Shown here piece by piece: positions 4,201 through 38,375 of a stretch of DNA of 64,000 nt; position 1 is the stretch's first letter; each line of letters begins with the position of its first letter. This DNA is from a virus (taxonomy: Duplodnaviria > Caudoviricetes): positions 1 to 64,000 of the IMG/VR virus record IMGVR_UViG_3300037400_001273; one strand, 5' to 3'. The notes under the pieces were generated by a model. That model did no database searches. It saw nothing but the letters and a program-made list of their open reading frames with translations, and was not told the origin of the DNA. Both the position numbers and the translations under genes were made by a program.

Positions 4201-7200
4201 AATACTCAGCTACTGTTCCAAAGAATAAATTCTTTGATTCATATGTTCCATTAGGATATGTTCCTAAGAAGTTTTGCATTGCTTCAATTTCAGCATGGAA
4301 AGCATCTTCTGACATATTCTTAAAGTCTGGATCTAATAAGAAGTTTTCTTTAAATCCATTAGGAACTCTGAATGTAACACTACCGTCTGCATTTTTAATT
4401 TCATCTAGCCACCAATAATTTTTTCTTGCTAATTCAATAGATTCTGCTTTAGTAAAAGTAAATTCTTTATTATTATATAAATCTTCCATTGCTTTTCTAA
4501 ATGCAGCTTCTTTAGCACCTTCTGCCATATTATCGAATGCAGAAGTAATACCTGTAGCAGTAGAAGATGGTGCAGGAGGTGTAGTACCTGTAGCTATTGG
4601 TCCAGAAGTTCCAGGTCCTGTAGGAGGTTCTGGTTTAGGTTCTGGTTCAGGTTCTGGAGTTGGTGCTGCCTTCTTTTTAGGAGCTGTATAATGAACAGGA
4701 TTTCCAGATTCTGTTAACCTTGTTAAAGACTCACGTCTTTGATCAGCGTATAATTTAATTGCGTTTTCACTGAAATTTTCTAAGTGAGTTTCAGGATCTT
4801 GTTGTTTTTGTATATAAGCATCAGTAAATACAATACTACCTTGACTTGAACGAGTAATAGCTGTATAAAGATCATTTGTTAAGTTAGGATTACTTTCATT
4901 TATTTCAATGATATAGTATTGTCCTTCCTTACCTTGTGATGTAGTTCCAGGTAAAAACTCAACATATTCAGAATAATTATTCTTAATTAAATCATATAAG
5001 TCTGAATTGTCTGGATCATAAACAAATCCAATTTTTTCACCCGGACTTAAAGTTGAAATCATTAATTTAATTGATTCTTCAACATCTGATACTGATGAAA
5101 CATTTTTATCAAAATATTTATCACCGTATATACCTGTTTCGTCTTCAAAATAATGTAGTGTTAAATCATTTTCTATACCGCTAGCCCAAAGCTGTGCAGT
5201 TGAAAGATTTAATGTTTTTTGAGAATTAGTTGTTCTCATTGAAACACCTAATTTAGGTGTTCTTATAAAGTTTACATTGAAAAGATTTACAGGTAATTTA
5301 GCACCTCTATTTCCAAAAATAGTTCCATCTTTTTTAACAGTAAAGTTTCCACAAACTCCAGATTGGTCTGTATCTCCAGCACCTAAAATCATTAAACCAT
5401 TTTGTTCAGCATATCTATTTAAATCATCAAGATCAAACATACTAATGTTTGTCATCTCATCAATAATAATAAGTGAATATGGTTTACTTACAGCTTCAAG
5501 TTTACGACAAGAACGGTATTCACCTTGTCTTGTCATTTCATAATCAGCTTCAGGAATATCGTAAAGTCTATCATCGTTTGTACTGTCAATTGCCTCTTTT
5601 AAAGGTTCTCTGTTTACGATTTGTCTCATTCCTTCCTCTAATCCGACTGCTCTTGTTTTAGTAGGATCAAGACCTAAGTTTGTTATTGATTTTTTAGCAT
5701 TTTCAGCAGCTGCTTTTTGGTCTTCTTCACTTGCTGAACCTGCTGCATATATAAATAATACATTATCAAGGATACCAGCTTTACTTAGTTCCTCGTTATT
5801 TTGTATCATTTTAATAGTTGTTTTATAAACACCTGTAGATTTACCAGAGCCAGGAATACCTTCTGTAAATACAATACTTGAGTATTTAGGAACAATAAGA
5901 TTAATAAAAGGATAATCCTTAACTTCCTCTATTGCTGCTCCATAATCAGACCATTTCTTGGTTTCTGAGAAATTTATATTTTGTCTATCAATAACTTCAC
6001 GTCTTTTATCTTCATCAAAAGTTGACCATTGTTCTTTTATAGCTTGACGGAAACCATAATAGAATTGCTTGAATAAATCTTTATTAGCAACAGATGCAAA
6101 GTTTTCATAAATAGCTAATTCTTGACTTGGAATAGGTGCTATTGTTGGATCTATTGCATTGATATATTCTTTATGGAAATCAGTAGATTTAACTGCTGCA
6201 CGAGTAGCTAACCACCATATAAAAGAATTATCATCAATTACTTCTGTAGTTTCAGTTAATAACTCATTAGGAACTTTAAATACATCAAAGTTTTCTCTAA
6301 GTAATTTACCAAGTTTTTTAGATGATTTTAAAGACTTTTCATTCTTTTTAAAAAAGTCATAAACAGCATCTTCCATCTTTAAAACTTCTTCCTCAAGTTT
6401 ATCTTGATCTTCTTTAGAGATATTAAGATTTCTCTTTTCTCCATTAGCATTTAATACTTCTAATGATTCAAGAAGTGATTTTAATTCTTTAACTCCCTTC
6501 CAATCTTCATCATCTGGTGAAAGTGCTGCTACAAAACTATTAAGTCTATTAAAGAATAAATAGTCTTTATTTAAAGCAACCTTTCTTTGAACAGCTAATT
6601 TTTGACCAGAAGCTACACTATATAAGTTTTTATAGAATTGAAGTTTATTTTTAACAAGATTTAAATCTTGTATTAAAACATTAGCAGTATTTGCTGTTAT
6701 TTCAAATAAATCAACCCATTTTTGATTTCCAACCTTATGATTTATTTCATTAAGAACTTTATTATAACCATAAGCGTTATCTAAGTTTCCATCATCAATT
6801 TTTCCAGCTTCAATTGCAGAACGTAATAAATCAATTAAGTTTATTGCTTCTGTAATTTGTTCACCCATTGATTTATTCATTGAGAATTTACTAATATCAC
6901 CATTTGTTCCTTCAAATATTTGTGATAAATCTCTCATTAATTGAGAAATTTTATTATCAGAACCAATAGCTGTTGTAAATTTATCAAGAATTTCTTCAAT
7001 TGGTGAAGAATTTAATTCGTTGAATTTTTGTCTGATTTCTTCAAGTCTTCTAATGTTTTCATATCTTGAATTTAAAAATTCAACAGCTGTATCTAATTCT
7101 TTTTGTTCGTCTTCTGATAGATTTCTAGCTGAACTTAATCTAGATTTAACTTCATTATATCCAGATTGATTAATTTCTTTTGTTAAGATTCGTGAAGTTG

Positions 7201-10200
7201 TTTTAATAATATTTTCTATAGCTTTCTTTATCTCAAAGTTAGCAAAACCTTGTTTCATATAAGGTGCAACAAGGTCATCTATAGATTTAGTAATTTGTTC
7301 AGCAACTAATGACTTTTTCTTTTCGTAATTAGCATTTCCTTTCTCAGTATATTCTGTTTCAAGAGCTAATCTTTCTTCACCTAAATCTGCTTCTTTTTCA
7401 GCTTTTTCTTCAGGTGATAAAGAAGTATCAAGTTCAACTTGAGCAATTCTATCTCTTAAATTATTAAGTTTTGTCTGAAACTCATTAGATATATTATTTT
7501 CTTCATTAATTACTTGACTAAATGTATTTCTAAAAGCACTATCATTGAATTGAAGTCCTAAGTTTGTATACATAGAACCTAATCCACCTATGATTTGTTG
7601 TAGCCATTGTTCTGGATTCTTTAAACCTTGAATATCTTGGAATTTTTCATACCATTTATTTAAAATTTCTTGAAGATTAAGTAAATCTTGTGTTTTACTT
7701 AACATTTCATATTTAGCTACATTTTGTGCAATTATAGGACTTGCATTTAAAAGTACATTCTTAAAGATCTCAGCAGCATTATGTACTTGTTCTGCACGAT
7801 CCATTTCATTCCAATTTTCCCATTCTTTTTGAAGTAAACCTAACTCATTTTCAGAGATTTCGTTGAAATTCTTTTTAGTTTTATATTCAGCAAATCTTAT
7901 AAATGAAGGTTTAATAAAACTATCATTTATTAAAGTAGTCATTTCAAATAGAGCATCTTGTATAAATTCTGAAGCACGTGTTCCATCAAGTAATGCTTCT
8001 TTTTGTTGTCTAAGTTCTTTAAGTTCACGTTCAATATTTTGGATTTTACTTCCGCTATTTTGTTGAGATCCTAATTGTGCTCTTAATTGATTTAAACTTT
8101 CTTTTAAAGCAACTTGTTCTTCATCTGTTGCAGTTTGAAGTTTAGTTTGAATATCATTAATTTGTTGTTGTAATAATTGTTTTTGATTTTCAGCAATATC
8201 AATTTGAGCATTAGCTGGAGTATTATTTTCAGTTTCACTTGAAGTTACTTTTCCCTTCTCAGCTAATAACATTGCATTAGCTTGAATAAGTTTAGCACCT
8301 AAAGAATTAAATTCTTGTAAATAACGTCCAGCAGTAGCAGATCTTTGTAATAGTCCAAATTTAATATCAGGTAATAAATCAGTTTGTTTTGATAAGAATG
8401 AATCATCACTCATTTTAATTCCTTCTGCTGAAAGAACATCATCAAATAATTTAATTTGAGCATAAATAGCATCCTTAGCAGCCTTATCTTGGTTATCTTC
8501 AGATGTACCTTGATCCCAAACATAATTATCATCTTCTTTTGTAAAATGACGTGCTGAAAGATTCTTATCACCAAGAGTCATTTCATCAACAGTCTTTAAA
8601 AAATCTTGAGTTTGTCCATTTCTTACCATATAGATAAGTTCTTGAACAGCTTGGTCAAATTCCATATGGTCAAGCTTTTTCATATTTCTCATATTATCAA
8701 GACTGAATCCGGCTGCACCACCACCAATAAAGCCTCCAACAAAGTTCATTGAATAGCGATTAAGAATTTTCTCCCAATCACCATTATCAAATGCTTCAAG
8801 ACGTGTATCATCACCTCTTAACCATCCAATAGTATTGAAGCAAGCTTTACTGAAATCTGCTAAGAATTCTTCTGATACTTCTTCAGTACCCTCACCAAGA
8901 GCATTAGCAAAAGCAGCTTTTATTGTTTTATCACCTGTTGATTTATAACCTGTATATAAATCTTTAGCTGTATTCTTACCTATATTAAATATTTTTTTAG
9001 CTAAATTTTTTTTAGCAGCCTCTTCTGCACGTTTTACACTACCAGGAACTAATTCTAATGCTGCTTTCTCAGTTTCTTTTTTAACTTTTACTAAAGCATC
9101 AGCAATAGCCTTTTGATGTAGTTTTTCATAACGAAGTTCTGGGAATAACCATTCACCAATACCTGTATTTAATATTGCAGCTTCTCCAGCAGAATATCCT
9201 AATGTAAGAAGAGCGGCTTCTACAGGTGTAGCACCTTGTAATTTAGCTTCTCCATATGTATCACCAGTAGTGATAGCAGTCATATATGTTTTAGATAGAA
9301 GTTCTCCTATCTTATTGTAACCTTTAACGTAAGAATCAAGTTCTGAAGTAGCACGAGCTTGTCTTATTAAAGCAAGTTCTCTAGCGGCTCTTTGTAAATC
9401 AACTATATTTTTACCTGACTTTACTAATTCATCAATTTTAGATTGGTCAAGTTTAGCTAAATCAGCTTCAATTTGAGCTAATTTAGATTGATAATTACCG
9501 TTATTTACTATTCCGTACTTATTCTTAAAGATAAGTGGAGCTTTCTCAAATAAGAATCTTTGTTCTTTAAATTGAGCCATTACATCTCCAACTAATCCAA
9601 TTAAATTCTCCATAGTCCAAGTATGTTGTTGAGAATACTCTGAAACAGCACCTTGTCTACTTATTGACTTAGAAAATCCTTCTAATTCAGAGAATGTATT
9701 GTGAAGTGAACCAAATGCACCTGTACTTTCTGATACCATTTTACCAAGAGTTCCAAGTAATCCAGCAGTTTGTCCCGCTAAACCTAAGAAAGTTACAGCT
9801 GGTCCAACATAAGGAATAAACATAGAACCTACAAGTGCGGTATTTTTCATTACAGTTCCACCAACACTTTTATCTTTACCATCAGAGTCGAAGAAATCAT
9901 ATTTATTCCATTCTGAACCATCTGTGGTTAAAGTATTCATTTTATTAAGAACTCTTCTTCCATATACATCTCTACCATCAAGATTTTCATAATAGAAATT
10001 ACCAGAAGAATTAAGTTTTAAATCACCTTTTTTATGTGTTTCTTTCTCACCTGTAACAGGATTTAAATGTTCACCATCTTCATCCCATTGTGCAGCTACA
10101 CGAGTTTCCCAGAAATTACTAAACCAAGAATCATTTGGTGCATCTTGCCATTTAGCTTTAGATTCATCAATAGTTCCATCAGGTCTTGTTGCTTCTACAG

Positions 10201-10657
10201 GATTAGCAAGAACTTTTTCTCTTTGTGCAAGTTCATCCCAAGTATAAGGAGATTCTTCAGTCTTTCCTAAGCGAACAATACTTTGTGTATTTCTATATGG
10301 ATTAGATTGTTTAATCCAATTTATTTCTGGACCTTTTTGTCTTTGGTCTACTGGGGCAAATATGTTATCTCTATGATAAACACGGCTTTTCTTTGCTAAA
10401 TCATCTGTATATTGATCAGAACTCATCACATTATACACATTTTTAGCAGTTTGATAGAAATCATGAAATTTAGTTTTACTAAAGTTTCCCATGTCATCTT
10501 TAAACATTGCCATGTTTTGTATTTTTTGAGAATTTAAATATTTCTCTTCGCTTTCTAAAGCAGTATTATCAGCTGTTAATCCAACTGTCTTTAGATTACC
10601 TAAAGACAGTCCTGGATTTCCAGCCATATTTAGTATTAAATCATAACTTTTTTCCAT
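1280..10657 (-). CDS. Giant virion cargo/ejection protein (3125 aa) with central SF1 (RecD/Dda-like) helicase domain
   Basis: ORFs 2042..10657 and 1280..1669 are in one frame joined through a single TAG at 2042. Motifs GIPGSGKST, IIIDE, GAGDTDQ, TTSQGKE, LYTAITRS; N-terminal hydrophobic hairpin, coiled coils, Pro-rich linker. Confidence 0.85.
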
Positions 10658-12567
10658 TATTCATCAAGACGACCTTGTAACTAAGTTATTTCTTGTAAAT
10701 CGTGATCTTGTTGTAATCCCGCTATTTCTTCTGCTTCATCAATACGTGGATGTTGATTATCTCCAGCCATAGCAGCCATTTCATCGGCAATAATTGGAAT
10801 AAATATGGTACCTTTAAACATTTGATCATGTGTAGACCACCAATGTTGTCCGTTACCCCACATTTTATCCCACCAACTTGACTTATCAAATTCTATATCT
10901 TTACCTTTTAATTCTTGCTGACTTCCACTAATATGAGCTTCATTATTAAATAGCTTTAGATAACTTTCTAATTCTGTATCTGAAACTTCTTTTAATAAAT
11001 TATTAAATGATTGATCATCTTCTCCAAATGCTTTACTTAAAGCAACACCTTGCATAACACCAAATCGTGCCCATTGTGTTGTATTTAAGTTTCCACCTGC
11101 ATCATATTTAATAGGTAGATTATATTTAGCATATATTTTATTAATTGCTTCCCAATCACCTTTTTCTTCTAATTGTGCAGCACGTACTTCTCTATCAGCA
11201 CTTTCTTTAGCTGCAAACATTTTGTAATTAGGAACAATATTTCCTTTTTGTTTTTCTTCTAGGTCTATAGGAAAATCAATAGATGTTACTTGTCCATCAG
11301 TACACATTAATTCAGATAAATGTGCTTCTGAAATTGGAACTCCGCCCATACTAACATTATTCCAATCAAGATTTCCACTAAATCCACCTTTGTTAACAGT
11401 TGCTAAACTACAAGCACCTAATACTTTACCAGTATTATCAGTTAAAGGTGCAGATATACCTTGTACATTTAATCCATCTGATGTTCCATTCATTATTGTA
11501 AATGCGTGTTTTTTACCATTTCCTCTAATGAAATTAGAAACAACACCTGGAGTATATTTACGTTCAGATTCTTTACCTTCTTTTTTAGCTCCTGGTTTAT
11601 TTCCTTCTTCATCTAATAGATAAGATTCATGATATTCTTGTTTAGAAGTAGTTCCAGATGCTACATAATTAGCAACAAGAAGTTGTGCTCCTTCATCACT
11701 ACCTGTTTTTAATTTAAGAACAGATTTAGCATTTTCTGGTAACATACTCCATATATATTGAATAGCTGCTTGTGCTTGTGCTTTTTGAGTACTTGATACA
11801 TTTCTAATTTTGTAAAGTCCTCCAGGTTTTATTTCACCTGTTTTATTATATATTTCTTTTAGAGTTTCTACACCTTGAAGTACAGTATAAGATTCTCTTG
11901 TATTATCATCACTTCCAAGTTTAGTAAGAGCATTTTTAATTTGCTTATTAATTTCTGTAAGACCAATACCATTTGCAGCAATATCCATTAAAGCATCATT
12001 ATTTGCATATGTAGTATCGTATGCTCTCATATAAAGAATGTTTGAATTAGTAAGTGCTTTATATCTATTTTTATTTTGTAAATATTTATCAATAGAAATT
12101 TGACTTACTTTTCCTTCACTATCTGATACTAATACTCCTCCAGAATCAGTAACAGCAATTTCATTTAATCCGCCGTTTTGGTCTAGTGTTTTCTTAATTT
12201 CATCATATTTCTTTTTACTAAAATTAGCAATTTTAATTCCTAATAAAGTATTAGCATATTGACTTGCAATTTGACTAGTACTTCCAAAAAGACTATCTGA
12301 TGAACCAAATAAACTAAATCCAGAATCTGAATTTAAGGCAGATATTAAGCCAGATTGAAGAACTGTCATATCTGAAGGAAGTCCATCTATTTTATCTAAT
12401 GATTTAAGTATATCTTTATCAGTTAAATCATTAGATTTGTTACTAGCACCAGAAGCACGAGTAGCACGTTCTGGCTGTGCTACTGTGCCACTAGGTGTAG
12501 TGACCGTTACAGGTCTATAATACTAGTATGGAGGCAGCCCTCCACCTTGCTATAATTTAACAATCAT
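10657..12567 (-). CDS. Virion cargo protein, 636 aa
   Basis: Starts MIVKL*QGGGLPPY*YY (TAG at 12550, 12523); TAG at 10681 reads through to TAA overlapping the next ATG (TAATG). Confidence 0.8.
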
Positions 12568-15500
12568 TTCCAATTATTCATTAATTTGTTAAGAATAGCT
12601 TTAGTAATAGCACTACTATCACCAATAGCTCTCTATGTAGTTTTTATACCTTCTAAAATTCTTTTATCGAATCTTCTATTATCATCAATTCTTGCTTTAA
12701 AGATGTTATCATAAATTGTTCCACCTTTTGCATATTTATTAGTAGAATAAGAGTAAGGAGTTGTAGAAAGTTTTAAATCATCCCAATTTACTCCGTATCT
12801 ATTTGCAGAGTAACGACCAATTTGATTATAAGCATCAACTTGGTATCTATTTTGGATAATTTCCATATCTTTCTTAATTTTATTAGCTTCTGCTGTATCG
12901 TTTGCTTTAATAGCAGCATCATATTGACGAGAAAGATTAACAAAATCTTTATCAGTCTTCATTTTATATTGAGCTAATAACATTGCTTGTCTTTGATTCC
13001 ACTGTTCTTGCATATCAGCTACTTGCTCTTTCTTCATCTCAGCTTTTTGTTCCTCGTAATCTTTTTTAGCTTCATTCTTAGCAAGTCTTTGACGTAATTC
13101 TAATTCATATTTATCACTTAAAGCATTACGAACTTGTGAGTTAGCTGCATCACGACCATTAAGAATATCTATGTCCATATTCTTTTTATTAATAAGTTGA
13201 GCATTGTTAAAGTTACCTGTTTCAACTTCTTGAGCGTGATTGTAGTTTCCAACTTCAACAGCTTTATCAGCATAAGTTTGACGTTTTTCATCAGCTTTAA
13301 ATCCAGCTTCTTGTTTTAGCTTAGCTGCATTACGAGAAGCTTCAAGTCTTGCTAAAAGACCTTGTTCTGTATTTGCAGTAGCATTTTGGATTTGTCGACC
13401 TTGTGTAGTAACTTGTCCTGCATTTTGTTGTCCATTTGCTAATATATTGTAAACATCAGCAGTTGGAGCAACCATACTATTAGGATTTTTTAAAGGAAGT
13501 TGCTTTCCTAAAGCTCTATCAGCTAATAAATTATTAGTTCTAATAGTATCTAATGCTGTTCTTAATGCAAGTGCTTCAGCACCTAAGCGTGTTGGATCAA
13601 ATCCATTAGGTTTAATTAGATTTGGTTTAGTAACAGTAGGATTATTTTGTGGTTGTGGTTCAACAGTTGAAGGTTTTATTTCTGATTTAGGAGTTTCAGG
13701 AGTAGGTTGAGGTTCAGTTTTAGGAGGTAATAAATGGAGTGTTCCATCATCTTCTTTATAAACTTGATATTCAGAACCATTATTTAATTTTACAGTATGT
13801 GTTCTGTTTTGCTTTTCAAAGTCATCAAGATCAGCATATTTTTTATCATAGTTATCAGCAACTCTGTGAGCTGTTGTACTACCTAAAATATCTTCTATAT
13901 TAACATTATATTTTAATTCTCCTACAAAAGGATCATTTATAGAATTATATAGTCTTTGATGGGCTTGATTATGTTTACTCCAACCTCTCTTATTATAAGG
14001 ATAAACATCTTTATTTTTCCAAGAATTATTTACTAATGTAATATCATTATTATAATCTGTTAAAAATTTATTTATATCCTCATATTTACCATTGTCAGAA
14101 TAAGATTGTATATCACTTCTTAATCTTCCAATATCTTTTAGATAATTTCGCATTACGCTATCAACATCTTGACCTGTTATATTTGTATGAGTAGATGTTG
14201 AATTTAATAATCCTCCGTTAGCTGTATTTTTTTGTTTTACAGTTTCTGGATATAAAGCTACATACGGATGTAAAATAGCATCCATATTTTCTCTATGATA
14301 AGTAGGTAAAGAATATGTTTCATCAATAGGTCTTGTTGTATATTCATTCCAACCTTGTTGCTTTTCTTTTTCTTCACGCATCTTATCCCAGAAATTACCA
14401 CCTGCTTGATATTTTTGAACAATTTTTTCGAGCTTACCTCCATTTTTATACCATCCTCTTGTACGAGCAAGATTTTGCTGTGCAATTCTAATTGCATTAT
14501 CAGGATGAACTTTTGGTCTCTGAGGTGGAGCAGTAGAAATTGATGGAGCAATAGGATTTTGAACAGGTGTCTGAACAGAAATAGTTCTTTGAACAGCAGT
14601 TGGTTTATAACCAAATGATGGTAAATGCATCCAAGATGGACGTTTTACATTTAAACTCATCATTCCTACTTCTGAAAGAGGACTTTTTTTATACATTGAA
14701 CTATTATCAATTAAACTAAAGTCATATACAGGCTTTTGTCTAACTTTAACAGATTGATTCCAGAAATGTGTATTGTTTGTAGGTTTTAATAAATCTCCTC
14801 TTATACTACGACCGAATGCTATATCATCATTATGACCCATTTGTCTAACCATTTGGTTCATTTCATCAGTTGTTTTAGCAGTTTTTAATTTGTCTAATTG
14901 TTGTTGAGTTAATTTAATATCACCTTTTTTACCTTGTATAACAATATCAGTTTTACCTGTATTTGCTGCATTTTTAACGGCTCTTGCTTTAAGAGTACTT
15001 GATCCAAGTTTAGTTGTATTAGCAACAGCAGTCATTGCTCTAACAATAGTCATATAATCATCAACTGTACCTTTTCCAGCTTCAATTTTATCATATGCTT
15101 CTTTTGCAGCACCTACATCAGTTACAGAAGCACCAACAGATAAAACCCAAGGAACAAAAGTTCTTACTCCTTTCCAAGCTTTTGTTAATTTACTTCCTGT
15201 ACCAACTAAAGGTAAAGCACCAATAGCAGTCATTCCTAAACCTTTAGCAAAATTCCAAGCTACATCACCTGCTGAATATCCTTCTGAAATATCAGCACCA
15301 GCTCTTGCTATATCAGATCCAATACCTTGAATTAAAGAAGCAGCATTACCATAACCAGGAACAAATGATGCTACAGCACCAGCTAAATCAGCAACACCAG
15401 AATAGAATCTTACCTTGTTAGCAGTATCCATATTATCAAGTGCTTCTCCCCAATTATTTGCTTTTTTAGAACCATTTTCAATAGCCTTTTGAGGACGTCC

Positions 15501-17024
15501 TGATTCTTTTGCTTTTTCTTGTAATTGTTTTTGTTCTGCTTTACGACTATTTGCTATATCTTCTTGAATCATTTGGGCAAAACTAACTCCTTGGCGAGCC
15601 ATAATAATTCCACCGTTTTTATGAATAGAAATATTATTATTCCACCAATCGCGGTTAGCTTGTGATAAAATATCACTATCTGAAGTTTTCATTCTTCTTA
15701 ATTCTCCAGAATTTTTATCGTATACCCAAGTATATCCTTTATTATAACGATTATATCCATTTAAAACGTATATTCCATTACCAATACGTTGTAAATTTTG
15801 TGTAAATCCATCTGACTCATTATCAGCATAATTAGACTCTATTTCAAGTAATGCTCTTAATTGACGTCTTATAGAAGGACTTGCACCATTCCAATAATCA
15901 ATAAAACTTCTATTTTTACCACTCATTAACTTACTATATAAAGCATGAACATTTTTATTAATTCCAAATGCTCCATAAGGATTAAGTTTTTGAGTTAAAT
16001 AATTGTTAATATTAAATGATTGGTCACCCATTAAGCTAAAATTACGTGGTTTAAAATCTCCAGCAATTTCATTATACCAATCATTAAAATTAATATCATC
16101 AATTTCTTTTTGTATGTTTTTCTGATTCTGTTTAATTGCAGAATCATAACGTGCAGTTTCAACTCTCATGGCATCTTCTAAAGATACTCCAGGGTGTTGA
16201 GTCATATATGCTTGTGCTTGTGCTTTAATTGCTTCTTCTCTTGTAGGTTGTGCACCTTGTTCTGTAGATTGAGTTGGTTGTTCTGTACCATCTGCTAACC
16301 ATGACATAGCTTGTGCACTTGTCATATCACCTACATCCATTAATGCACGTATAACATTATCATTATATTCTCCTTTTTTAAGAAGATTGATAGCATCATT
16401 AATATGAGTTATTCTATCGTTTTTATCTTTATATTTACTTCCCTCATAATCAATATCTTGTGTATCTATATCAGATTTTAATCTTTCAAGATATCCAGCT
16501 AAAGTATTCATTCTTTTAACTCTAGAACGAACTCCGTTACCATCAACTTCATCTTGATTTAGCCAAAGTTTAATATCTTGGTCAGAACCTGTATAGTTTC
16601 CACCATAGAAATTATTATTTATGATGTTACCTAAAGCACCTCTTGTATCTTCAAATTTAATTCCTTTTTTCTTATCTGCTTCTCTTTGAGTATCCATTCC
16701 CGTAGAAAGCTCCCAAAGAAATTGAGCAGCTTTTCCATAAGGATCGTTTGGTTGTGAACTATTTGATAATTCTCCTGTCTTATCAATTAATTCTCCATTT
16801 TTACTCATAGAACTAATATCTCCTTTTTCGATACCTTGTATTATTTTATTAAAAGCATCATTAGCAGAAACTTCATCGTCTCCAGAGATATTATAATTTG
16901 ATTTAAAGGTGTTCCAATTCTTTTTAGCTAAGTAAATAAAATCGTTTTTATTTACGTTTCTACCTCCTATATCAAAAAGTTCGGTAGTGGAACCACCTTG
17001 CTAAAATTTCTTTACTTGAGCCAT
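12564..17024 (-). CDS. Virion cargo/ejection protein, 1486 aa, with Gly/Ala-rich membrane-type segments
   Basis: Starts MAQVKKF*QGG (TAG 17001); TAG 12633 reads through to TGA overlapping the next ATG. Confidence 0.8.
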
Positions 17025-17032
17025 ATTAAATG

Positions 17033-17064
17033 AAAAAGGAGCACACATTGTTAGTGTGCGCTCC
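17033..17064 (-). terminator. Intrinsic terminator
   Basis: Minus strand GGAGCGCACAC-TAACAAT-GTGTGCTCC then TTTTT; one bulge. Confidence 0.7.
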
Positions 17065-17072
17065 TGAATAAA

Positions 17073-17426
17073 TTATTTTTTAATTCTCTTAACTAAAGTT
17101 CCACCTCTACGGTAAACTGGTTCACCAGCTTCAGCGGCAGAAACTTCATCAGGTGCACCTTCAGCACCACCACCTTGTGCTTGCTGTAGTAACTGAACAA
17201 ATACCTGACATACTTGCATAGCTGCATTACAATCTTGTGATTGTAGTGCTTGCATAGCCATTTGTGCAATCTGCATCATTGGATCTTCTCCGCCTTCTGG
17301 TGCTCCTGCTGGTGCTCCACCCTTCACAGGTGCTCCACCTGCTGCTGGATCCTGTGGAGGCATAGCTCCACCTTGTTGGAATTTATTAATTCCTCTGTTG
17401 TTATTAAAATTTACTTTCAGTTTCAT
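17073..17426 (-). CDS. Small Gln/Gly/Ala-rich protein, 117 aa, probable internal virion protein
   Basis: ORF track; KFQQGG near N-terminus and YRRGG near C-terminus. Confidence 0.75.
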   Translation of the reverse strand: MKLKVNFNNNRGINKFQQGGAMPPQDPAAGGAPVKGGAPAGAPEGGEDPMMQIAQMAMQALQSQDCNAAMQVCQVFVQLLQQAQGGGAEGAPDEVSAAEAGEPVYRRGGTLVKRIKK

Positions 17427-17468
17427 AATTAATTATTGTTTAAATTTAAACTTTGTGATTTGAATATT

Positions 17469-17499
17469 CAAATATATGTAATATTTAAATTAAATCAAA
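17469..17499 (-). promoter_or_regulatory. Bacteroidota primary-sigma-type promoter
   Basis: TTTG, 19 nt, TATATTTG matches the -33 TTTG / -7 TAnnTTTG consensus; overlaps palindrome TTTGAATATTCAAA. Confidence 0.55.
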
Positions 17500-17536
17500 A
17501 TAAAATTAATTAAAATAAATTATTTAAATATGTATA

Positions 17537-18127
17537 TCAATCCTCAGTTTTTTCTTCTTTCTTCTTTGCTGAGTCTACATATTCAACAGGTCTTTCATCT
17601 TGTCCTTTTAAAACCTTAAACATATATCTTCCGAGAGCTTTATAATCTTTGTCATCCTTACTTTTATCAGCTTTTTTAGCTTTTTTAATAAGAATTTTTG
17701 TTTCTCTTCTAGATACTATTCTTTCTCCACCTTGAAGCCACATTTGAACTGAACCATCTGGTGCAAGAACTTTCATAACACCTTCTGCTTCATCTTCTTC
17801 AAAAAGTAATTCATCACCTGGTTTAATTCCAGAATTTATATTAACTTCAAGTACATATGCTACATCTTTTTCTTCGATATAGTCTAAAGATAAAGGTTTA
17901 CCTTGTTTAACACTTATTACTTCTTGATCGTCATTTATAAAAACTATATCAAGTGGTATATATGTATCTTCCATCCAATAAGCAACATCTTCTGGAGGAT
18001 TGTGGTAAAATAACATTCCTTCGTCTTTTGGTAGTTCCTTAATGTCTTGTAAACCTTTTTCTCTTTCCTCTTCAGTCTTACACTCTTTAACTTTGTAAGA
18101 TTTATTGCCTATTTTAATGTTAATCAT
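17537..18127 (-). CDS. DUF192-family domain protein with extra C-terminal domain
   Basis: REKGLQ..ELPKDEGMLF...YWMEDTYIPLDIVFIN is the DUF192 signature. Confidence 0.75.
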   Translation of the reverse strand: MINIKIGNKSYKVKECKTEEEREKGLQDIKELPKDEGMLFYHNPPEDVAYWMEDTYIPLDIVFINDDQEVISVKQGKPLSLDYIEEKDVAYVLEVNINSGIKPGDELLFEEDEAEGVMKVLAPDGSVQMWLQGGERIVSRRETKILIKKAKKADKSKDDKDYKALGRYMFKVLKGQDERPVEYVDSAKKKEEKTED

Positions 18128-18133
18128 ATTTTA

Positions 18134-18577
18134 TTAACGTGTAAAGTTACGTCCGTGTAATGCTTTATTCATTTCACCGTTAGCTGCTCTTTTTTCAAAA
18201 TAGTTTTGAAGATCAGTTCTTTGATTTCCACCTTGTACTGGTTTAAGATTAGCATTAATATCATCTGTACCAGTTAGAGGTATTTCAGGTGCTTCAAACT
18301 GAATTCCTGCTAAAGCATCAGCTGGAATTTGAACATTACGCTTAGCAGTCGGAACAGGTTGCTGTGCTATTTGTTGCTGAGGAACTGTAGGTTGTGCAGG
18401 TGATTGGTTATAAAAGTGTGCAAATGCTGGATCTATAGGTGTATACTCTTGCTGTTCTAGTGCCATCTAATTTAATTTATTCTTCCAATCAGCAGCAAGT
18501 AAAGCTTTTAAATCTGCATTATTAGGAACAACGAATCCTCCTCTTTGATGTCTTGGTATTAACTTTAATTTTGTCAT
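18134..18577 (-). CDS. Hypothetical Gln/Pro-rich cargo protein, 147 aa
   Basis: Extended through TAG 18467 to MTKLKLIPRHQRGG, starting 3 nt after the upstream TAA. Confidence 0.7.
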
Positions 18578-18580
18578 TTT

Positions 18581-21349
18581 TTAAATTGTTTTAATTAATC
18601 CTGTACGATCGTCTGTATTATACAAAATTTCATCTACTAATAACTTTCCGGCTTCTAATTCAACTTCTTCTTTTTCTTTTTTAGAATATTCATAATCGCC
18701 GTGTTTTCTCTTTAGATCTTCAAGTTTTTTAGTAACTTCAAGTCTAAAAATTATCTCATTTAACTCTATTTCGGCTTGCTATTTCTCGTTATTATCAATA
18801 ACGGGAATACCTTTTTTAGTTATATTATCAATATCCATATGGTGTAATCTTGCATGAAGAGCACCATCTGGTATTACGTTTAAAGAACCTCCTTGTTTAA
18901 ATTCAAGAGTTTCTATTTCTTGCTTAGGTTTGGCTTTATAAAAATCATTTCCATACCATAATATAGATTTTGGCTCATTATTATCCCAATATTTTTTCAT
19001 ATCTTCAAATGAATGTTGAGCCATATTAAATGGAGATGCTTTAAATATCCAACCTACTTCATCATTTCCTAACCATTCTCCGCCAAAATCTTCACCACCT
19101 TTTGATTCTTTAGAATAAGTATGATGTTGAGGAAGTTTGTAATAATCATTCATATGAGCATTGCCAGGGTTAGATAATTCTGCTTCTAACCATTTTGCTC
19201 TTAACTCTTCATCATCATAAAATCCTTTGTAATCGAAATCAGGAGCAAATCGTCCTGTTTCTCTTAAATATTTTTGGAAAGAATCGAAATCTACAATAGA
19301 TTTAGGATTTAATTTAGTTCCTTCCTAAGCAATCTAAATCTCTCCTCCTTGTTTAAACTTTTCAAGAAGTCCGGTCCTATCTTCAGTATTATATAATATT
19401 TCTTCGGTAAGCAACTTACCCGCTTTAATAGCTGCTTCATCACTACCATCCTTTTTAAATTCCTCAATTAATTTAGTTACTTCTAATCGGAATATAATTT
19501 CATCACGTTCAATTTCAGCTTGTTGATCTCCTTCGTTATCAATTACAGGTACACCTTTCTTTGTAACATTATCAAGATCCATGTGATGAAGATTAGCGTG
19601 TAATGCTCCTTCTGGAATTACATTTTTAGTTTCTTCTTTTTCTTCTACAGGCTCTATTATTATAGTCTTTTTAGTTTCTATAATGATACGTGCTCTATCT
19701 AATTTATCTTTAAATGAATTAAGAATACCTCCTTTTTTAGAGAATGTTATATCTCTATATCCACCATTTAATAAATTATTAAGAGATTGAGCCTCAGTGC
19801 CAGTCATAGTTTGTTGTAAAGTCTTAACTCGTTCAGATTCATTAGAAATGTTTCTAAGAATGTTTTGTTGACGAATCATTTCTTGAATTTTATTCTCCCA
19901 TTTATTCTTTTGACTTCTTGAAAATAATCCGAACTTTTTACCAGCATATGGTTCTACTTCATCAGCTAAAGCATTAGAACCTAAATAAGAACCACCAATA
20001 TTTGCAAATATATCAGTATCTTTTGTAAATGCAGAAGTAGATTTTCCACCAAATCCATTAATCATTCCAATTGGAGTAGCTTGCAAAAATGCAGAACCAA
20101 GTATTGCATCAGTTGTAGTCATACCATCAGTACCACCACCCATTGCTTTAACTCCATGACCAAGTAATTTATTGCCAGCCATAATAGCTCCAGCTAATGT
20201 TCCAATACCCGGAATAGCACTTACACCCGCTTCAATAGCATCATAAGCTGTATCAAGTCCTTGTGTAATACCTCCTTTAACACCTTGATATTCAGTAGGT
20301 GTTTGATTACCAAATAAAGCAGTATCAGCAATACTTGCACCAATTCCAGCTAAATTAGCAACATTAGTTAACTTAGCAGCTTTAGCTGCTTGTAAAGCCT
20401 TACCGGCTTCAGTAGCATCTTTAATGTTTTTAGCTGTTTTAATTGCAGTATTTGCAGATTTAATACCTTTAATACTATTAATAATATTCTTACTTTGTCC
20501 TATTAATTGACCTCCAGCACGAACTACAGAATTATCAGATGTTCCAAGCATACCGCTTACGGCTCCTATACCTGTATCTAATAAACTATCTCCATTTATT
20601 CCACCACTTAAATTACTAAGTCCAGAAGAAATAGTACTATCTACAGTTTCATTTCCTGTTGATAATCCTGCTGCTTGAGCTGCTTGAAGACCTATACCAA
20701 TATATTTACCATCAAGCATACCTTTATTTGGACCAACCTAATCAATTTGTGTATTAATTTGTTCAGTTATTCCATCATTAGTTTGATTAATCGTTCCATT
20801 AATAGGTGCTGCAGATTTAGGATCTACTATCATTTTATTAATATCATTTCCACTTAATTTAGGTTGAAAAGTATTAGTTTTATCAGGAGTAAATCCAACA
20901 TCAAACAATGATGGATTTGTAATAACATTTGGTTGTTGATTTATTACACCTCTATTATTGGCTCTTTCATTAAAAGCATTAACATTTGGATCTCCTAAAT
21001 CATATTTAGATAAATCCATTTTATTTATTTGCTCTTTTTGTTTAAGAAGAGCATTATCTTTATCATTTAAAAGCCACTTGTAAGAATTATCTTTTTTGTT
21101 GTAATCCTAAAGATATTTTTGAGCATTATCTGCAAGTCCTTGACCAAATTGTGCAATTCCTTGTCCAACTTGTTGAGCTTTTTGTTGTTCTTCAAAATAC
21201 TTAGAATAATCAGAAGTTGCATCAAAGTTATTTGTTACATCTTCTGTATTAAACTATTGAAGATCCATCCAATTAAAATTAGAATTTATCCAAGGATTTA
21301 AATTGGAGGGGGTTTGAAAGCCCCCTCCGTTCATATTTAATCTACTCAT
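18581..21349 (-). CDS. Virion cargo protein, about 922 aa (start uncertain), with amphipathic membrane-type region and a duplicated C-terminal domain
   Basis: ORFs 20738..21019, 19334..20719 and 18779..19153 share a frame; joined through TAGs 21254, 21107, 20738, 19334, 19325, 18779; TAA at 18581. Confidence 0.8.
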
Positions 21350-21350
21350 A

Positions 21351-24300
21351 TTATAAAGATTGTGAATATATAGTAATTATCTTATGAATTAAAGCAAGTT
21401 TTTCACCTGAATAACGTATTCTAATTCGTATATATTTATCTCTTATTTTAGTTTGTTGTCTTGTACATTTAGTATCAGGATCACCGATTTCGTAAGTATA
21501 TTGTCCACTTCCGTTTGTTTCAACATTCTAAATTATAGGTAGATCACCCCAAGAATCAACATCAATTTCTTTATCTTTTAATGATTCTGGAATATCTAAA
21601 TCATAATTAGTAATATTTGCTGGAATTGGAATATTAGCAATACTTACAGGTACTTTACCATTCTTCCATGTTGAATTTATGATATTTCCTTGTTCGTCCA
21701 CTCCATCATTTTCATTTTTCTAAACAAAATTGATAGGAGATATTTGAACTCTCCAAGTATCGTTTTTATATTGCATATTACCTCTTAAACGATTTCCAGA
21801 CCCCTTATCGACATCTATTGCTCTACTATGAACCCACAAACCGTATTCATCTGTAACTTTATCATGAGTAACTTCTGTTCCAGTTAATTCATCATAATTC
21901 TTATTACTTGCAGTAATTTTCTTATATTGATCCTCAATCTCATTAAATGTATCTTGACGTGCTTCATACATTTGTGGTAAAATTGTAGATTTAGGATTTT
22001 GTCGTACTCCTTCATCTTCAATTTCTTTCCAATCGTGGTCGTAAAGAATATCACTACCATTATACTGATATAATTCTTTTGTAGATTCTTGGCGAATATA
22101 CATATTCTTTTTGTCATTAGCAAATTCTATGCCATTTCCAATTATTTGATAATGGAATGATTCTGGCTCTGCATTATTTGATATAATTTGTAAATTATCA
22201 AATATTTTTTGAACCTCTGGATTATCATTTACACAAAATTCTATTTCAAATGGATGTTGTTTTCCATACCAATGACAAGGTTTAATTTTTTCAGTAACAT
22301 TTTGTAAACCTGCTTGACCATGTTTCCAAAAAGCACTCATTAATGAAGGTTTATTTTCATCATAAGGTTTTGTATTTCCATTATCATAAACAGATTTTAA
22401 ACAAATAGCAATAGTATTATTATAATAATTTTCTTTTACTAAAGTTCCATTTAATAAACTCTTATTTTCATCTTCTACAGATTTTACTTTAGCTGAAATG
22501 TTAAGTAGAATTACAGGATAAGGATAATCATCTGGTAATTTATATTTTTGAACAACCATCCAAGGATCTCCTTGACTAGTGTCTACATTTTCAATAATTA
22601 ATCCGTTATCACCATCATAATAATTTTGATTTCCTTCATTCATTATTTCAAATCCATTTTCATCTATAATATGTATTGTACCATCATCAACAGCAAAATA
22701 TTTATAGTTACCAAATGGATCTCTTTCTAAAGTATATTCTACTTTATATTTACCTTGAATATCTCTATTAGATAATTTTAAGAATCCAATTGGATATTCT
22801 GGGCAAACTCTACCTTCTCTATTAAAATCAATTAATGAATTATATTCTTCAGATTCATCATTAATAATGTTATTAGTTAAGGTAATTCCATCAGCAAAAT
22901 CTGAATAACAATTACTTATTCCAAGTTTAGCAATCCATTTAGATGTGTTTCTATCAAAACTAAAGAATTGATTGAATATATTTTCTGAATAAGAAGGAAC
23001 CCAAGAATAAAGAGTTACCCAAATTTGTTGTGTTTCATTCCAACAAATATTCCATACTTTTTCTTCAAATCCACGTAAATTATCATAGAAAGTAAACATT
23101 ACATCGTTTTTATAACCATTATAATGTGTTTTAACATTTCTAATACCAATAAGAGGTGTTAATTCACGTTCACTTAATGTAATATTTTGATTTAAGAATT
23201 GTTGTATGTGTACATCAGAAATAGTTTGAACGTTAGGAGAATCTACTCCTACTCTCCAAATTTTCTTAGCAACTGTATCAACACCATAAATGTAATATGG
23301 AGTTTTTACAATACTTTCTTTCCATTGACTTCCAAATTTATCAGAAATAATTCTTGGTTCACCAATTACTTTATTAGCTCCAACATATACATTTTCTCCA
23401 GAAGCATTTTGTAAAAGAGCTTTTTCATTTACAGGAATACTTCCAATTCCGTGTTCAAATACAACTAATAATGAACCATTTGATTCAAGAATCTTTGTAA
23501 TTGAACCATATTCTTTAGAATAATCTTGGAAATGTCCTAATTCAAATACTCTGAAGTTATTACTATATGAATCATTAGAAGCTGGATTAGAATATAATAT
23601 TCTACTTGAAAATTCATTCTTTTCAGCCGGAACATCAGCAGCTTCTATATACTTTTTAACACCAAATTCCTTTTGGAATCCTTTATTAAAGTATGAAGAT
23701 TCTGGAGTTTTGTAAGAACCATCTAAATTTATTTTATATCGAGGATAGAATCCACGTCCATGTCCGATTAATGCTTTTTCATCAGAATGACTATCATCTA
23801 CACCACGTATACATAAGTTTTTAGTAGAACGAAGAGTAAATGTAACCCAAGTTCCTAATCTTACAGCATTTAAATCACCAATATTAATATTAGCAAATTT
23901 ATGCTTTTCAATTACACCGTCTTTAACTGAGTAATTATCTTTCCAACATTTTGGATTAACAATATCATCATTAGTAGGTGCAGCTGGATCTTGGAAATTA
24001 CGATTCATTCTATGTGTAAATTGACATATATAACAATCTCCACGATATAAAACAAAGTTTTCATTTTCAGCAAAATCATTTATTTCTAATCTGTCAGAAA
24101 TAGGGAAGAATGAAGAATTATCACTATATCTAACATTGAAATATTCTTGAATTTTACTCTTACTATATCCTGGGATTTTAATATCATATAATGTCAATAC
24201 TTTATTTTTGTTAGCACTTTGAACTCCTAAATAAGGACCCCAATTTCCTCTAACAAAGTTTGTTGCATCAGTCTTTTTATTTTCTTTAGCAATATATTCA

Positions 24301-26600
24301 AATCTCCAACCATCAGTTGAATTACCCGCTGTTCCTCTATAATTATCTTTATCAATAGCCATTAACTTAGAACTATCTGGAATAGCTAATACTTTAGATT
24401 TATATTCTACAGTATCATTAGAATAAGTGTATTTTCCAACATAAAAATTACGCTCTTCTTCTGGATTCCAAGATAAATTAGTTCCAACAGGTTGCATATC
24501 TGCTTTCTTTAATACAAATTGATCTCCTGTAAATAAATTAGAATAAAAAGTCTAATCTAATTCAAATTCAGGACATAAAGCTGCATTTACTTTAACTTTA
24601 TTTTGTTCAACAGGTCTAATTCTACTATAAAAATCATTTGTAATATATCTATCTCTTGAGTCTATAAAAGATTCTGCAAGATAATAATTTACTGATTTAA
24701 GATTTGTAGCTAAGTTTTTATCGTTAGTAGATACACGTTTTGTAGTACCTGTATATGGATCAACTATTTCTTTACCTTCTCCAGCTAAAGTTTGGAAGAT
24801 ATTTAACTTAGATTCTTTAGGTTGATTATAAGCTACACCTGTTAATTGACTAACAAATAAAGAATTGTTATTTCCAATAGGAAACACAGGTAAATGACTA
24901 TGTTTATCAGTTGCGATTGATAAACATTGACATAAAGTAGTAGGTATTCTCTTTTGTCTTACAAAGAAGAAACCTTTAGTATATTTTTTAAGTTCATTAA
25001 GAACTTCGTCTTTTTGATTTTTATCAATTTCTATTTTAATACCATAAACTTTATGTGGATGTTCTTCATTTACAGGTAAATTAGCATCAAATGTTTTTAA
25101 AGTTATAACACCTTTAGCATTTTCTAATTTAACAGGATTTTTATTAGAAGAAATAATGGAGTAATTATCTTCTGAAATAGTTAAATAATTTCTAACTCCA
25201 TCTTTATAAAGAGGTTCATATGAAAAATTAGAATTTTCATCAATATTATAACCTCCTCTTATATTAAATACTGGAGATAAAGAATTATCAGGTAAAATAT
25301 AAACTATTCCAAGTCTATAAATTTCATCATTCCAATATCCTGTATAATTATAAATATATTCTGGATTATAATAACCTTCAGAACTACTATTTATGTTATA
25401 TTGTGAATCAATATCTAGATTATAATCAATAACTGAACGTTTTGGTAAAAATCTTAAAGATAAATCAGTAAGTTCTTTATATGGAATTTCTGGCTTTTTA
25501 ATATTACCTAAAAATAACATATTTTTACAAACTGCTTGAGTTTCAACAGAAGATACAAGTTGATATTGTGTATTAATTACATCTTCTGACGCATCTAAAT
25601 CTTTAATAAATCCAGATATTGTTATATTACAAGTGTTATTTTTATCTACTATATATTTATGTTCAATTTCATAACAAGTAGTTTGAGCTTCTTGATTAAA
25701 TCCAGAAGTTTCTTTACTGTAATAAACTTTTACATAATTATAAGCAGAGTCTATGTTAGATAAAGTAAATTTAACTAACTTCTTACTATTTTGATTTCCA
25801 AATCCACTTTCAATACTTTGAGGAGTATTACCTAAGAATACTGAAACTAAACCAGATTCTGCAATCCAATCTGTTTCATTTCCATCGGAGTCTACATATT
25901 TAAAGAAGAAATGGTAATTTCCAACTCCTAAATTACCTCCAGGATATACACCATCAAATTTAAGTTTTGGAATCTTAATAGTACGTTTATATAAAGAAGT
26001 ATCAATATCAAATTGATCTCCTTGATCGTATATATTTGTGTCGTTATCTCCTTTTCTATCAACTATTTGATAATGATTTTTCTCAGTAGGAGAGAAACGA
26101 GAATTTATTAATCTAGGTATATTCTTTCCATCATTAATTATAAGATTTACTGAATTATCATAAGATTCTTGAGTAATTATATCAACAGGATGTTTTAAAT
26201 CAAATTCTAATTCATCTGTTTCAAAATCTACTAATTGTCCTTTTTCATATAATTCAATATCTATATCATCAGTTGATTCTGATATTAAAGTAGTATGATT
26301 TTTATCTTCTGATAATTCACAATTATACCATTTCTGAGGATCTGTATTAGCAGTTCCATGTCTTATTCTATTATAATCAAATTCTGGTTTAAGATTAGTA
26401 TCACCACCAATAGTTATAGATAGAATTTCTTCTATTTCCTCAAGAGTATAATATTTATCATTATATTTAAATTTATTACATTTAGTAAGTCTATAATTTC
26501 TAAATGGATTATATTCCCATGCTAAGACTCCCTTAGTAGGTAAAGTCTTAGCTTGGAATTGAAAATTTAAAGGTTCGTTTAGTATCTATTTGTAACTCAT
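21351..26600 (-). CDS. Tail stabilization / muzzle-like protein (P22 gp10-like), 1749 aa
   Basis: Joined through TAGs 26586, 24552, 21720, 21528; motifs EIYRLGIVY, RGDCYI, YGSITKI, GSQWKES, IYGVD and C-terminal RDKYIRIRIRY as recalled for crAss tail proteins. Confidence 0.7.
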
Positions 26601-37877: not shown

Positions 37878-38375
37878 ACCCTTCTCAGATAGTTCTGGGA
37901 AAGCGTTAGATTGGAAACGTGTAGTAGCACCTACATAAGTACCAGAACGATCAAGTTTTCCCTTATAATCTTCGTCAATGAGACGAACAACATAGCACCA
38001 ATAGTTATCACGTGTACGTGTTGGTTCAGTTACAACGAAGAATTGTTGGAATGTTTCATCAACCTTGAAAATATCATTCTGTTCGTAGTAACGTTCTGTG
38101 AAGAACATCTGAATTTCAGATCCGCCTTCACCATCACCAATTGGTTCAGCTGCAAAAGCAACTCTCTTAATTTGATTAGCTTCGATTTCCCACTCAAAAT
38201 ACATTGAGTTAATTGACTGATGCTTATCAGCACCTTTAACGTCTTGATAGAAAATATTTTTAAGTGACTCAAGAAGGTATGTAGCTGTAAGATGTGGATA
38301 CATACGAGATACTACACCCATTCTGTGAGGATTAGTACCAAGGAAAGAATAGAAATCTTCGTAGGTACGTGTCTC
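37878..38375 (-). CDS. Major capsid protein exon 2
   Basis: ETRTYEDFYSFLG...FQSNAFPELSEKG bounded by both introns; spliced product 471 aa in frame. Confidence 0.85.

Follow-up and report, generated by a model that had tools for sequence, protein, structure and literature searches.

A conserved Gly-Gly motif in the cargo proteins of a TAG-recoded crAss-like phage

The cargo block and its motif copies

The IMG/VR virus record IMGVR_UViG_3300037400_001273, a 76-kb virus contig with a completeness estimate of 42%, was analysed over its positions 1 to 64,000, hereafter called the window. A short peptide motif, [FYH]-x-x-G-G in its simplest form, recurs in the cargo block of this window, that is, in the six genes directly downstream of the muzzle protein gene (10657-21349, minus strand, 3512 aa). 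The motif is a peptide-level, cargo-specific, ancient and conserved short linear motif. The window belongs to a crAss-like phage recoded to read TAG as Gln: this reading closed the fragmented open reading frames (ORFs) of the entire window, and under translation table 11 many genes were broken up. All long ORFs are on the minus strand, and the G+C (GC) content is 25-39%. Pfam matches in the window comprise a crassvirus muzzle protein, a ring protein, a crassvirus major capsid protein, a P22-like portal and an M15 endolysin.

By synteny, the six-gene block and the 3125-aa gene after it occupy the position of the PhiCrAss001 cargo genes gp45-gp50. The 922-aa gene starts after a 1-base gap from the muzzle gene, in the same order as gp44-gp45. 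The genes of the block, their motif copies (q = TAG) and the two bordering genes are as follows.

18581..21349, minus: 922-aa protein at the position of cargo protein C1; helical core at aa 340-530, two NVIPEGALHARxH domains, three motif copies
19727..19744, minus: copy T-F-S-K-K-G-G, aa 536-541 of the 922-aa protein, in the linker past the helical core; predicted local distance difference test score (pLDDT) about 50
19316..19651, minus: NVIPEGALHAxLHHMD domain copy 1, aa 567-678 including the motif after it
19343..19360, minus: copy K-F-K-Q-G-G, aa 664-669 of the 922-aa protein, where domain copy 1 ends and the inserted cassette starts
18908..19342, minus: variable His-rich cassette, about 145 aa, between two motif copies of the 922-aa protein
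18887..18904, minus: copy E-F-K-Q-G-G, aa 816-821 of the 922-aa protein, immediately before domain copy 2
18584..18907, minus: NVIPDGALHARLHHMD domain copy 2, aa 815-922, the C-terminus of the 922-aa protein
18134..18577, minus: 147-aa protein with an N-terminal leader copy
18536..18553, minus: leader R-H-Q-R-G-G, aa 9-14 of the 147-aa protein
17537..18127, minus: 196-aa DUF192 protein (Pfam DUF192 4.4e-22, aa 12-107), motif copy after the domain
17726..17743, minus: copy M-W-L-Q-G-G, aa 129-134 of the DUF192 protein, identical in L001, L003 and L004
17073..17426, minus: 117-aa protein, copies close to both termini; its family numbers at least 2479 proteins
17367..17384, minus: leader K-F-Q-Q-G-G, aa 15-20 of the 117-aa protein, in 119/120 homologues
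17100..17117, minus: C-terminal V-Y-R-R-G-G, aa 104-109 of the 117-aa protein, followed by a conserved 8-residue basic tail; in 118/120 homologues
12564..17048, minus: 1494-aa cargo protein with one leader and four internal copies
16992..17009, minus: leader K-F-q-Q-G-G of the 1494-aa protein
15609..15626, minus: internal I-H-K-N-G-G, aa 475-480 of the 1494-aa protein; N/Q-G-G-I-L/I in 5/6 orthologues
14436..14453, minus: internal W-Y-K-N-G-G, aa 866-871 of the 1494-aa protein; a conserved island with gappy, variable flanks
14397..14414, minus: internal K-Y-Q-A-G-G, aa 879-884 of the 1494-aa protein; Gly-Gly columns invariant in six orthologues
12720..12737, minus: internal K-Y-A-K-G-G, aa 1438-1443 of the 1494-aa protein, 50 residues before the C-terminus
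10657..12573, minus: 638-aa cargo protein with a leader and one internal copy
12541..12558, minus: leader K-L-q-Q-G-G, aa 6-11 of the 638-aa protein
11092..11109, minus: internal K-Y-D-A-G-G, aa 489-494 of the 638-aa protein
21351..26600, minus: muzzle protein gene, 1749 aa (Pfam crAss_MUZ 4e-26, crAss_MUZ_C 2.6e-7), upstream border of the cargo block, without motif enrichment
1280-10657, minus: 3125-aa protein with a weak AAA_30 (superfamily 1 helicase-like) match and no motif copies

The true start of the 1494-aa ORF is probably the second ATG (17024), giving the leader M-A-Q-V-K-K-F-Q-Q-G-G of the usual length, because the leader of the L004 homologue reads M-S-Q-I-R-K-F-S-S-G-G.

Enrichment and conservation of the motif

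The original prediction, made from the letters of the window, had listed 12 hydrophobic-x-x-Gly-Gly peptides in five genes. All of them lie in minus-strand genes once TAG is read as Gln, and the two asterisks in its strings are in-frame TAG codons. Two copies beyond that list, K-Y-D-A-G-G (residue 490 of the 638-aa protein) and W-L-Q-G-G (residue 130 of the DUF192 protein), brought the total to 14, all inside the six genes downstream of the muzzle. The spread over several genes was therefore upheld, and the number of motif-bearing genes rose to six with the DUF192 copy.

The enrichment was evaluated using shuffles that preserve the composition of each protein (n = 300), none of which reached the observed values in the cargo block. 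The block contains 20 hydrophobic-x-x-GG sequences (7.3 ± 2.7 expected), 12 of the form [FYH]xxGG (1.8 expected; 0/300 shuffles reach 12) and 9 of the form [KRE][FYLH]xxGG (0.7 expected). In contrast, the other genes (15,039 aa, including capsid, portal, fibres, muzzle and rings) hold 10 [FYH]xxGG sequences against 6.9 expected, which is not significant, and the giant downstream proteins of 3125 and 427 aa together hold 1 against 1.1 expected. Single copies outside the block, such as D-F-I-K-G-G in the portal and K-Y-G-T-G-G in a fibre-like protein, occur at chance level. The earlier remark that the pattern was not noticed in the capsid, portal or fibre genes thus holds as a lack of enrichment, but not as strict absence. 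Moreover, a copy within the first 20 residues was found in 4/6 proteins of the cargo block vs. 0/38 other ORFs of the contig. The proposed placement at termini and domain borders, bracketing modules, was borne out more strongly than first stated, with the cassette of about 145 aa enclosed between two copies.

Codons vary among the copies: GGT and GGA are mixed, TTA, TTT and TTC are all used, and Gln is TAG or CAA. From such unrelated codons the original prediction had argued that selection acts on the peptide. The variation and the lack of a DNA-level repeat were confirmed, but the argument is weaker than implied because a GC content of 31% narrows codon choice. A stronger argument for selection on the peptide is that relatives with no more than 31-63% identity keep their copies at orthologous positions.

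The searched collections yielded just a few close relatives. The syntenic contigs L001, L003 and L004 share 74%, 63% and 31% identity, respectively, in the 1494-aa protein, and the loci L006-L009 were found through the muzzle protein (39-45% identity). A search for related loci with the 1494-aa protein alone found nothing, and tblastn against GenBank phages returned only two unannotated records. Copies are present at orthologous places in all seven loci, with leaders such as K-K-F-Q-Q-G-G, R-K-F-S-S-G-G and K-F-L-Q-S-G-G and the C-terminal form P-V-[YF]-R-[RK]-G-G; when the 1494-aa proteins are aligned, they form islands of identity amid gappy, variable stretches. Downstream of the muzzle, the seven loci contain 44 copies in 25.8 thousand residues vs. 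11.5 expected, whereas their upstream ORFs and muzzle contain 6 copies in 25.7 thousand residues vs. 10.7 expected. The comparison of cargo with other proteins, proposed with the original prediction, therefore gave enrichment in the cargo both in the window and across the related loci.

Two families of the block allowed the motif to be described residue by residue. In 150 diverse relatives of the 922-aa protein, taken as the best matches of the domain profile, 365 [FYH]xxGG sequences were counted vs. 64 expected, 113 of them adjacent to the domain and 252 elsewhere. Leaders lie at residues about 7-12 in this family (for example I-K-K-Y-Q-x-G-G), and the internal copies follow the consensus [VI]-[EP]-[EK]-[FYH]-[KQ]-x-G-G-x-[ILV]; the latter form arrays of 2-7 copies with acidic spacers of 20-30 aa and also flank modules of 120-250 residues. 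A logo of 230 internal copies places the aromatic residue three residues before the first Gly, which would be P5 if a cut follows Gly-Gly, and Lys or Gln at P4; a hydrophobic residue stands two positions past Gly-Gly in 278/349 internal copies. In the leaders the aromatic is immediately preceded by basic residues and usually followed by Gln, and the second position past Gly-Gly is not hydrophobic, whereas the internal copies are acidic or neutral, with mostly Lys after the aromatic and a hydrophobic residue at that place. These differences between the two flavours are significant (Fisher p between 0.02 and 1.5e-5).

The family of the 117-aa protein was scored in its best 120 members. The N-terminal copy follows [TVI]-[RK]-K-F-Q-x-G-G-[AP]-[MV]-P, and the C-terminal copy follows G-E-P-V-[FY]-R-[KR]-G-G-x-L-V-[RK]-R-I-K-K, with exactly 8 residues after Gly-Gly in 112/118 copies. 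On the prime side, G-G-x-L-V-R-R-I-K-K-end, conservation reaches 99% for L, 89% for V, 97% for R and 94% for I. In this family the residues after Gly-Gly are as strongly conserved as those before.

The leaders of the 638-aa and 1494-aa genes carry an in-frame TAG at the same motif position (12549-12551 and 17000-17002; K-[LF]-q-Q-G-G). With a TAG within the first 10-17 codons, neither gene is translatable until the suppressor is active.

Domains, structure models and comparison with PhiCrAss001

The 922-aa protein ends in a domain of about 100 residues that reads N-V-I-P-E-G-A-L-H-A-R-x-H, followed by I-T-K-K-G-I-P-V, Q-Q-A-E-I-E and A-G-K-L-L. A profile search with this domain among 1.84 billion representatives (50% identity level) retrieved 1415 clusters at E<=1e-3 and 1182 at E<=1e-10. 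Pfam, PHROGs and NCBIfam hold no model of it, and only two examples, both unannotated, were found among GenBank phages. In most of the 150 best matches the domain is preceded at a fixed spacing by [FYH]-[KQ]-x-G-G-x-x, and G-G-x-x-N-V-I-P-E-G is conserved at the junction of motif and domain. The domain has invariant His, Glu, Asn, Thr and Asp residues, a set that suggests metal binding or catalysis.

The segment placed between motif copies differs among relatives. In L001 the two domain copies are joined by one motif copy, K-F-M-Q-G-G, with no cassette between them; in L004 a different, Cys-containing cassette, unrelated to that of the window, occupies the same seam of the 922-aa homologue. 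By BLAST coverage, a His-rich cassette of the window type was found in about 25-35/150 relatives, roughly a fifth. Single-linkage clustering lumped the inter-motif segments into a single, uninformative cluster, and no fused forms turned up when the small cargo proteins were compared by BLAST with the 150 C1-like relatives. An HExxH module of about 150-170 aa without a Pfam match lies between two motif copies in 5/150 relatives (P0018, P0019, P0032, P0041 and P0081) and may be a packaged metallopeptidase.

AlphaFold2 (AF2) modelling of the 922-aa protein from a 103-sequence alignment gave a confident helical core at aa 340-530 and low or medium confidence at all three motif copies. In this model a short helix ends one residue past the aromatic and a short strand follows Gly-Gly (aa 661-666 and 669-672). 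The C-terminal 139 residues, modelled from 85 sequences, form a confident hairpin and two helices; in this model pLDDT is <50 for the motif and for the NVIPDGALHARLHHMD stretch of the domain, which is nearly invariant. Foldseek with the 922-aa model gave no match in PDB at E<=0.001, the matches to the domain model in a VIA-align wide search were all generic helical hairpins (Z<=6.7), and BFVD contained only uncharacterised crAss-like homologues. PDB sequence searches with the domain profile and with the 3125-aa and 1494-aa proteins found nothing. Beyond DUF192, the muzzle families and weak noise, Pfam, PHROGs and NCBIfam gave no match to any cargo protein.

An intein interrupts the C1-like core within its most conserved stretch, G-G-G-T-D-G-M / T-T-x-D-A-I-L-G-S-S, in a 978-aa protein (L007:15324-18260) and in P0103, where the intein consists of Hint plus LAGLIDADG; the window copy of this stretch is uninterrupted. 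The insertion of an intein there suggests a functionally critical site.

In the PhiCrAss001 virion, gp45 residues 425-552 are bound to the portal wing and residues 214-245 inside the tail rings R1 and R2, and a helical fragment of 14 residues, left unassigned, is bound at the muzzle (Bayfield 2023, PMC10172136). The gp45 sequence contains aromatic-preceded Gly-Gly pairs at residues 20-21 (I-F-D-T-G-G), 209-210 (S-A-Y-G-G), 263-264, 332-333, 427-428 (A-F-G-G) and 562-563 (F-A-Y-G-G). The A-F-G-G at residues 425-428 comprises the first ordered residues of the portal-bound domain, F-A-Y-G-G(563) comes after this domain, and the ring-bound helix 214-245 begins four residues past S-A-Y-G-G(210). 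Aromatic Gly-Gly elements thus flank the partner-bound segments of gp45, one of them ordered and uncut, as an analogy to the motif of the window and not as homology. The 922-aa gene and gp45 both come right after the muzzle gene, and their long, Gly-rich products are largely disordered and contain such elements. However, the 922-aa family has its own unnamed NVIPEGALHARxH C-terminal domain, and its internal flavour is F-K-x-G-G vs. A-[FY]-G-G in gp45. Neither BLASTP nor hhalign (probability 0.1) supported a relation between gp45 and this domain. The Pfam family crAss_CARG1 (PF25725) covers gp45 424-555; it did not match the 922-aa protein even at E<=10, and no match was found in the records G000, G001 and G002, though the 922-aa protein may be its counterpart in function. 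The gp45 homologue search yielded only sequences with >=96% identity, all too close for a conservation test in Steigviridae.

Further observations concern other genes of the contig. The DUF192 (COG1430) protein lies inside the cargo block and is kept in L001, L003, L004 and probably L007; no function and no virion or cargo role was found for DUF192 in the literature searched. The major capsid protein gene (36022-39116) matched only part of the Pfam model and seems to be in pieces, which fits the introns noted with the original prediction. No DFDxD RNA polymerase motif was found in the contig, and therefore the catalytic subunit of the virion RNA polymerase probably lies past the contig end.

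Possible roles of the motif

We tentatively favour, with somewhat less than even confidence, the reading of the motif as a docking or assembly handle for the virion cargo (ejection) proteins of a large, mostly uncultured crAss-like branch. Starting from a motif whose existence, enrichment, restriction to cargo, two-sided conservation and positions are observed, we infer that it binds a partner, and which one. The handle would come in two flavours: a basic leader right at the N-terminus, M-x(2-15)-[ILV]-[KR]-K-[FY]-Q-x-G-G, and an acidic or neutral seam, [VI]-[EP]-[EK]-[FYH]-K-x-G-G-x-[ILV], at module joints, in 20-30-aa arrays, at C-termini and before the NVIPEGALHARxH domain. Each would fold as a short amphipathic helix turn, a Gly-Gly cap and a short strand, gaining order only once bound to a partner such as the portal, the tail rings, the muzzle or other cargo. 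Before DNA packing, it would thereby bring every cargo protein or module into place in the procapsid or tail.

Several observations argue for a handle. The motif is enriched in and restricted to the cargo block and is deeply conserved. Its conservation on the prime side looks like that of a binding peptide and would be unusual for a disposable cleavage tail, and the arrays of 2-7 copies with acidic spacers suggest multivalent binding. Furthermore, the motif and the nearly invariant NVIPEGALHARLHHMD stretch are predicted with low or medium confidence beside a confident hairpin and helices, as is usual for segments that fold only on a partner; the aromatic stands at P5 and not at P4, no protease of six families was found in the three records searched, and A-F-G-G is ordered in gp45. 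The original prediction had offered a capsid-loading or ejection address as one of two options; the evidence gathered here leans towards it.

A bolder form of this idea, which we consider a long shot, is a matched code. The docking sites of the basic Gln-type leaders would be the acidic Lys-type seam arrays on the C1-like protein, or else the muzzle or portal, and the resulting ordered, multivalent cargo train would fix the order of exit. The seams would be sockets that make new modules (His-rich cassette, HExxH and others) injectable, and the muzzle-bound 14-residue helix of PhiCrAss001 would be such a leader.

Short docking peptides are known from other systems. Encapsulin cargo-loading peptides and the C-terminal coat-binding peptide of the P22 scaffold dock cargo inside an HK97-fold shell; they resemble the motif as short conserved terminal peptides on diverse cargo, rich in Gly and hydrophobic or basic residues. 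Unlike them, the copies described here are also internal and multivalent, there is no sequence resemblance, and the docking role is a prediction. The T4 internal proteins IPI-III and Alt carry an N-terminal capsid-targeting sequence with an L/I-x-E end that is removed by the gp21 S77 prohead protease. Both systems place a short shared N-terminal peptide on several unrelated packaged and injected proteins (here 4/6 block proteins); however, the motif is a different one with internal and C-terminal copies too, and no S77 gene was found in the three records searched.

Other considerations weigh against a docking handle. The link to PhiCrAss001 is one of analogy, its internal copies being A-[FY]-G-G with no detectable crAss_CARG1 homology, and the partners named are candidates, the models covering single chains. 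The 3125-aa protein, presumably packaged, lacks the motif, which consequently is not a universal packaging requirement. In addition, an N-terminal leader of about 10-20 residues ending in Gly-Gly looks exactly like a removable propeptide, and docking followed by cleavage can coexist, as in T4.

The last two points lead to the other option of the original prediction, a processing site, which we regard as unlikely but not as a marginal alternative. A phage or host protease would cut at or next to Gly-Gly, removing leaders as propeptides, freeing modules as effectors and discarding the acidic spacers, much like the processing of internal head proteins by T4 gp21 or phiKZ gp175. The leaders, 7-20 residues from the N-terminus in 4/6 genes and in many relatives, are in keeping with this proposal, as are the copies flanking variable plug-in modules, the acidic 20-30-aa spacers that resemble discarded propeptide pieces, and the HExxH module between two copies, although the latter occurs in only about 3% of relatives. 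Cleavage has been proposed for the fused RNA polymerase polyproteins of crassviruses, and packaging for a zincin-like domain (Drobysheva 2020 preprint). Cleavage of gp45 would also account for the presence of its N-terminal part in the tail and of its C-terminal domain in the capsid, with no need for 12 chains to pass through the portal. However, A-F-G-G is ordered where the portal-bound domain begins in PhiCrAss001, and the large cargo bands of this phage seem intact: the virion bands on sodium dodecyl sulfate-polyacrylamide gel electrophoresis of about 150, 270 and >300 kDa (PMC6235969) are compatible with intact large cargo proteins. The PhiCrAss001 virion atlas mentions no scaffold, protease, cleavage or cargo signal (PMC10172136). 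Searches for C48, C39, Prok-JAB, S78, S77 and S49 peptidases gave none above threshold in G000, the L004 assembly and the 117-kb L007 record, and no HExxH was found in the 76-kb contig; this is weak evidence, given that the records are incomplete (42% and 69% complete), that the S77 control search was positive in no control genome and that a host enzyme is possible. The sites themselves also speak against cutting, as the prime side is conserved like the non-prime side and the C-terminal tail of the 117-aa family is fixed in length and sequence. Adenain, ASFV (African swine fever virus) pS273R, coronavirus PLpro (LxGG) and the C39 double-glycine leaders have a hydrophobic residue at P4 (M/I/L-x-G-G|x) and a weakly constrained prime side. 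The motif shares with them an invariant Gly-Gly after a hydrophobic residue and its placement in leaders and between modules, but differs in the aromatic at P5, the conserved prime side and the lack of a detected C48 or C39 peptidase in the three records. The suggested analogy to adenovirus and ASFV cleavage therefore fits poorly. A T4-type site, read from [IL]-x-E after Gly-Gly, was rejected: Glu occurs there in only about 25% and is absent from most window copies.

The remaining explanations dispense with both a partner and a protease. The motif may be structural punctuation, a helix cap or hinge that lets a beads-on-a-string cargo protein unfold, thread the portal and tail and refold module by module, with new modules inserting at the seams; this we judge improbable. 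The modelled short helix before Gly-Gly and strand after it agree with such a role, and the hydrophobic residues three before the aromatic, at the aromatic and two past the second Gly fit a capping box; different cassettes are found at the same seam in different phages, and crassvirus cargo is thought to be ejected partly unfolded (PMC10172136). A generic hinge, however, needs neither a conserved aromatic with Lys or Gln nor two charge-distinct flavours, would have nothing to separate at the extreme N-terminus or 8 residues from the C-terminus, and would not be expected to be confined to cargo. The exchange of cassettes at one seam between relatives would equally suit a recombination boundary, a short homology for cassette swaps like the 'boundary sequences' of lambdoid phages. 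This possibility is very remote: nucleotide identity between copies goes no further than the peptide requires, the peptide is conserved at 31-60% protein identity, and for copies at the termini there is nothing to exchange. With 7-14% Gly the cargo proteins are somewhat rich in this residue, and the pattern was set only once the data had been seen, so that an artefact of chance or of Gly-, Lys- and Gln-rich composition had to be considered. It was refuted, and we assign it next to no weight, as composition-preserving shuffles never reached the counts and the same was found in independent sets of relatives.

Full-text literature searches found no paper describing such a motif in Crassvirales. 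New here are the extent of the domain family, the two flavours that differ in charge, the conservation on both sides of Gly-Gly in the 117-aa family, the protease searches with their negative outcome and the residue-level comparison with PhiCrAss001. The unnamed 100-aa domain family (1415 clusters) deserves a Pfam entry. Crassviruses are the most abundant human gut phages and inject megadaltons of protein. A portable tag common to all small and medium cargo proteins makes the selection, arrangement and release of cargo directly testable, and it provides a simple sequence rule to recognise cargo genes and plug-in effector modules in uncultured crass-like genomes.

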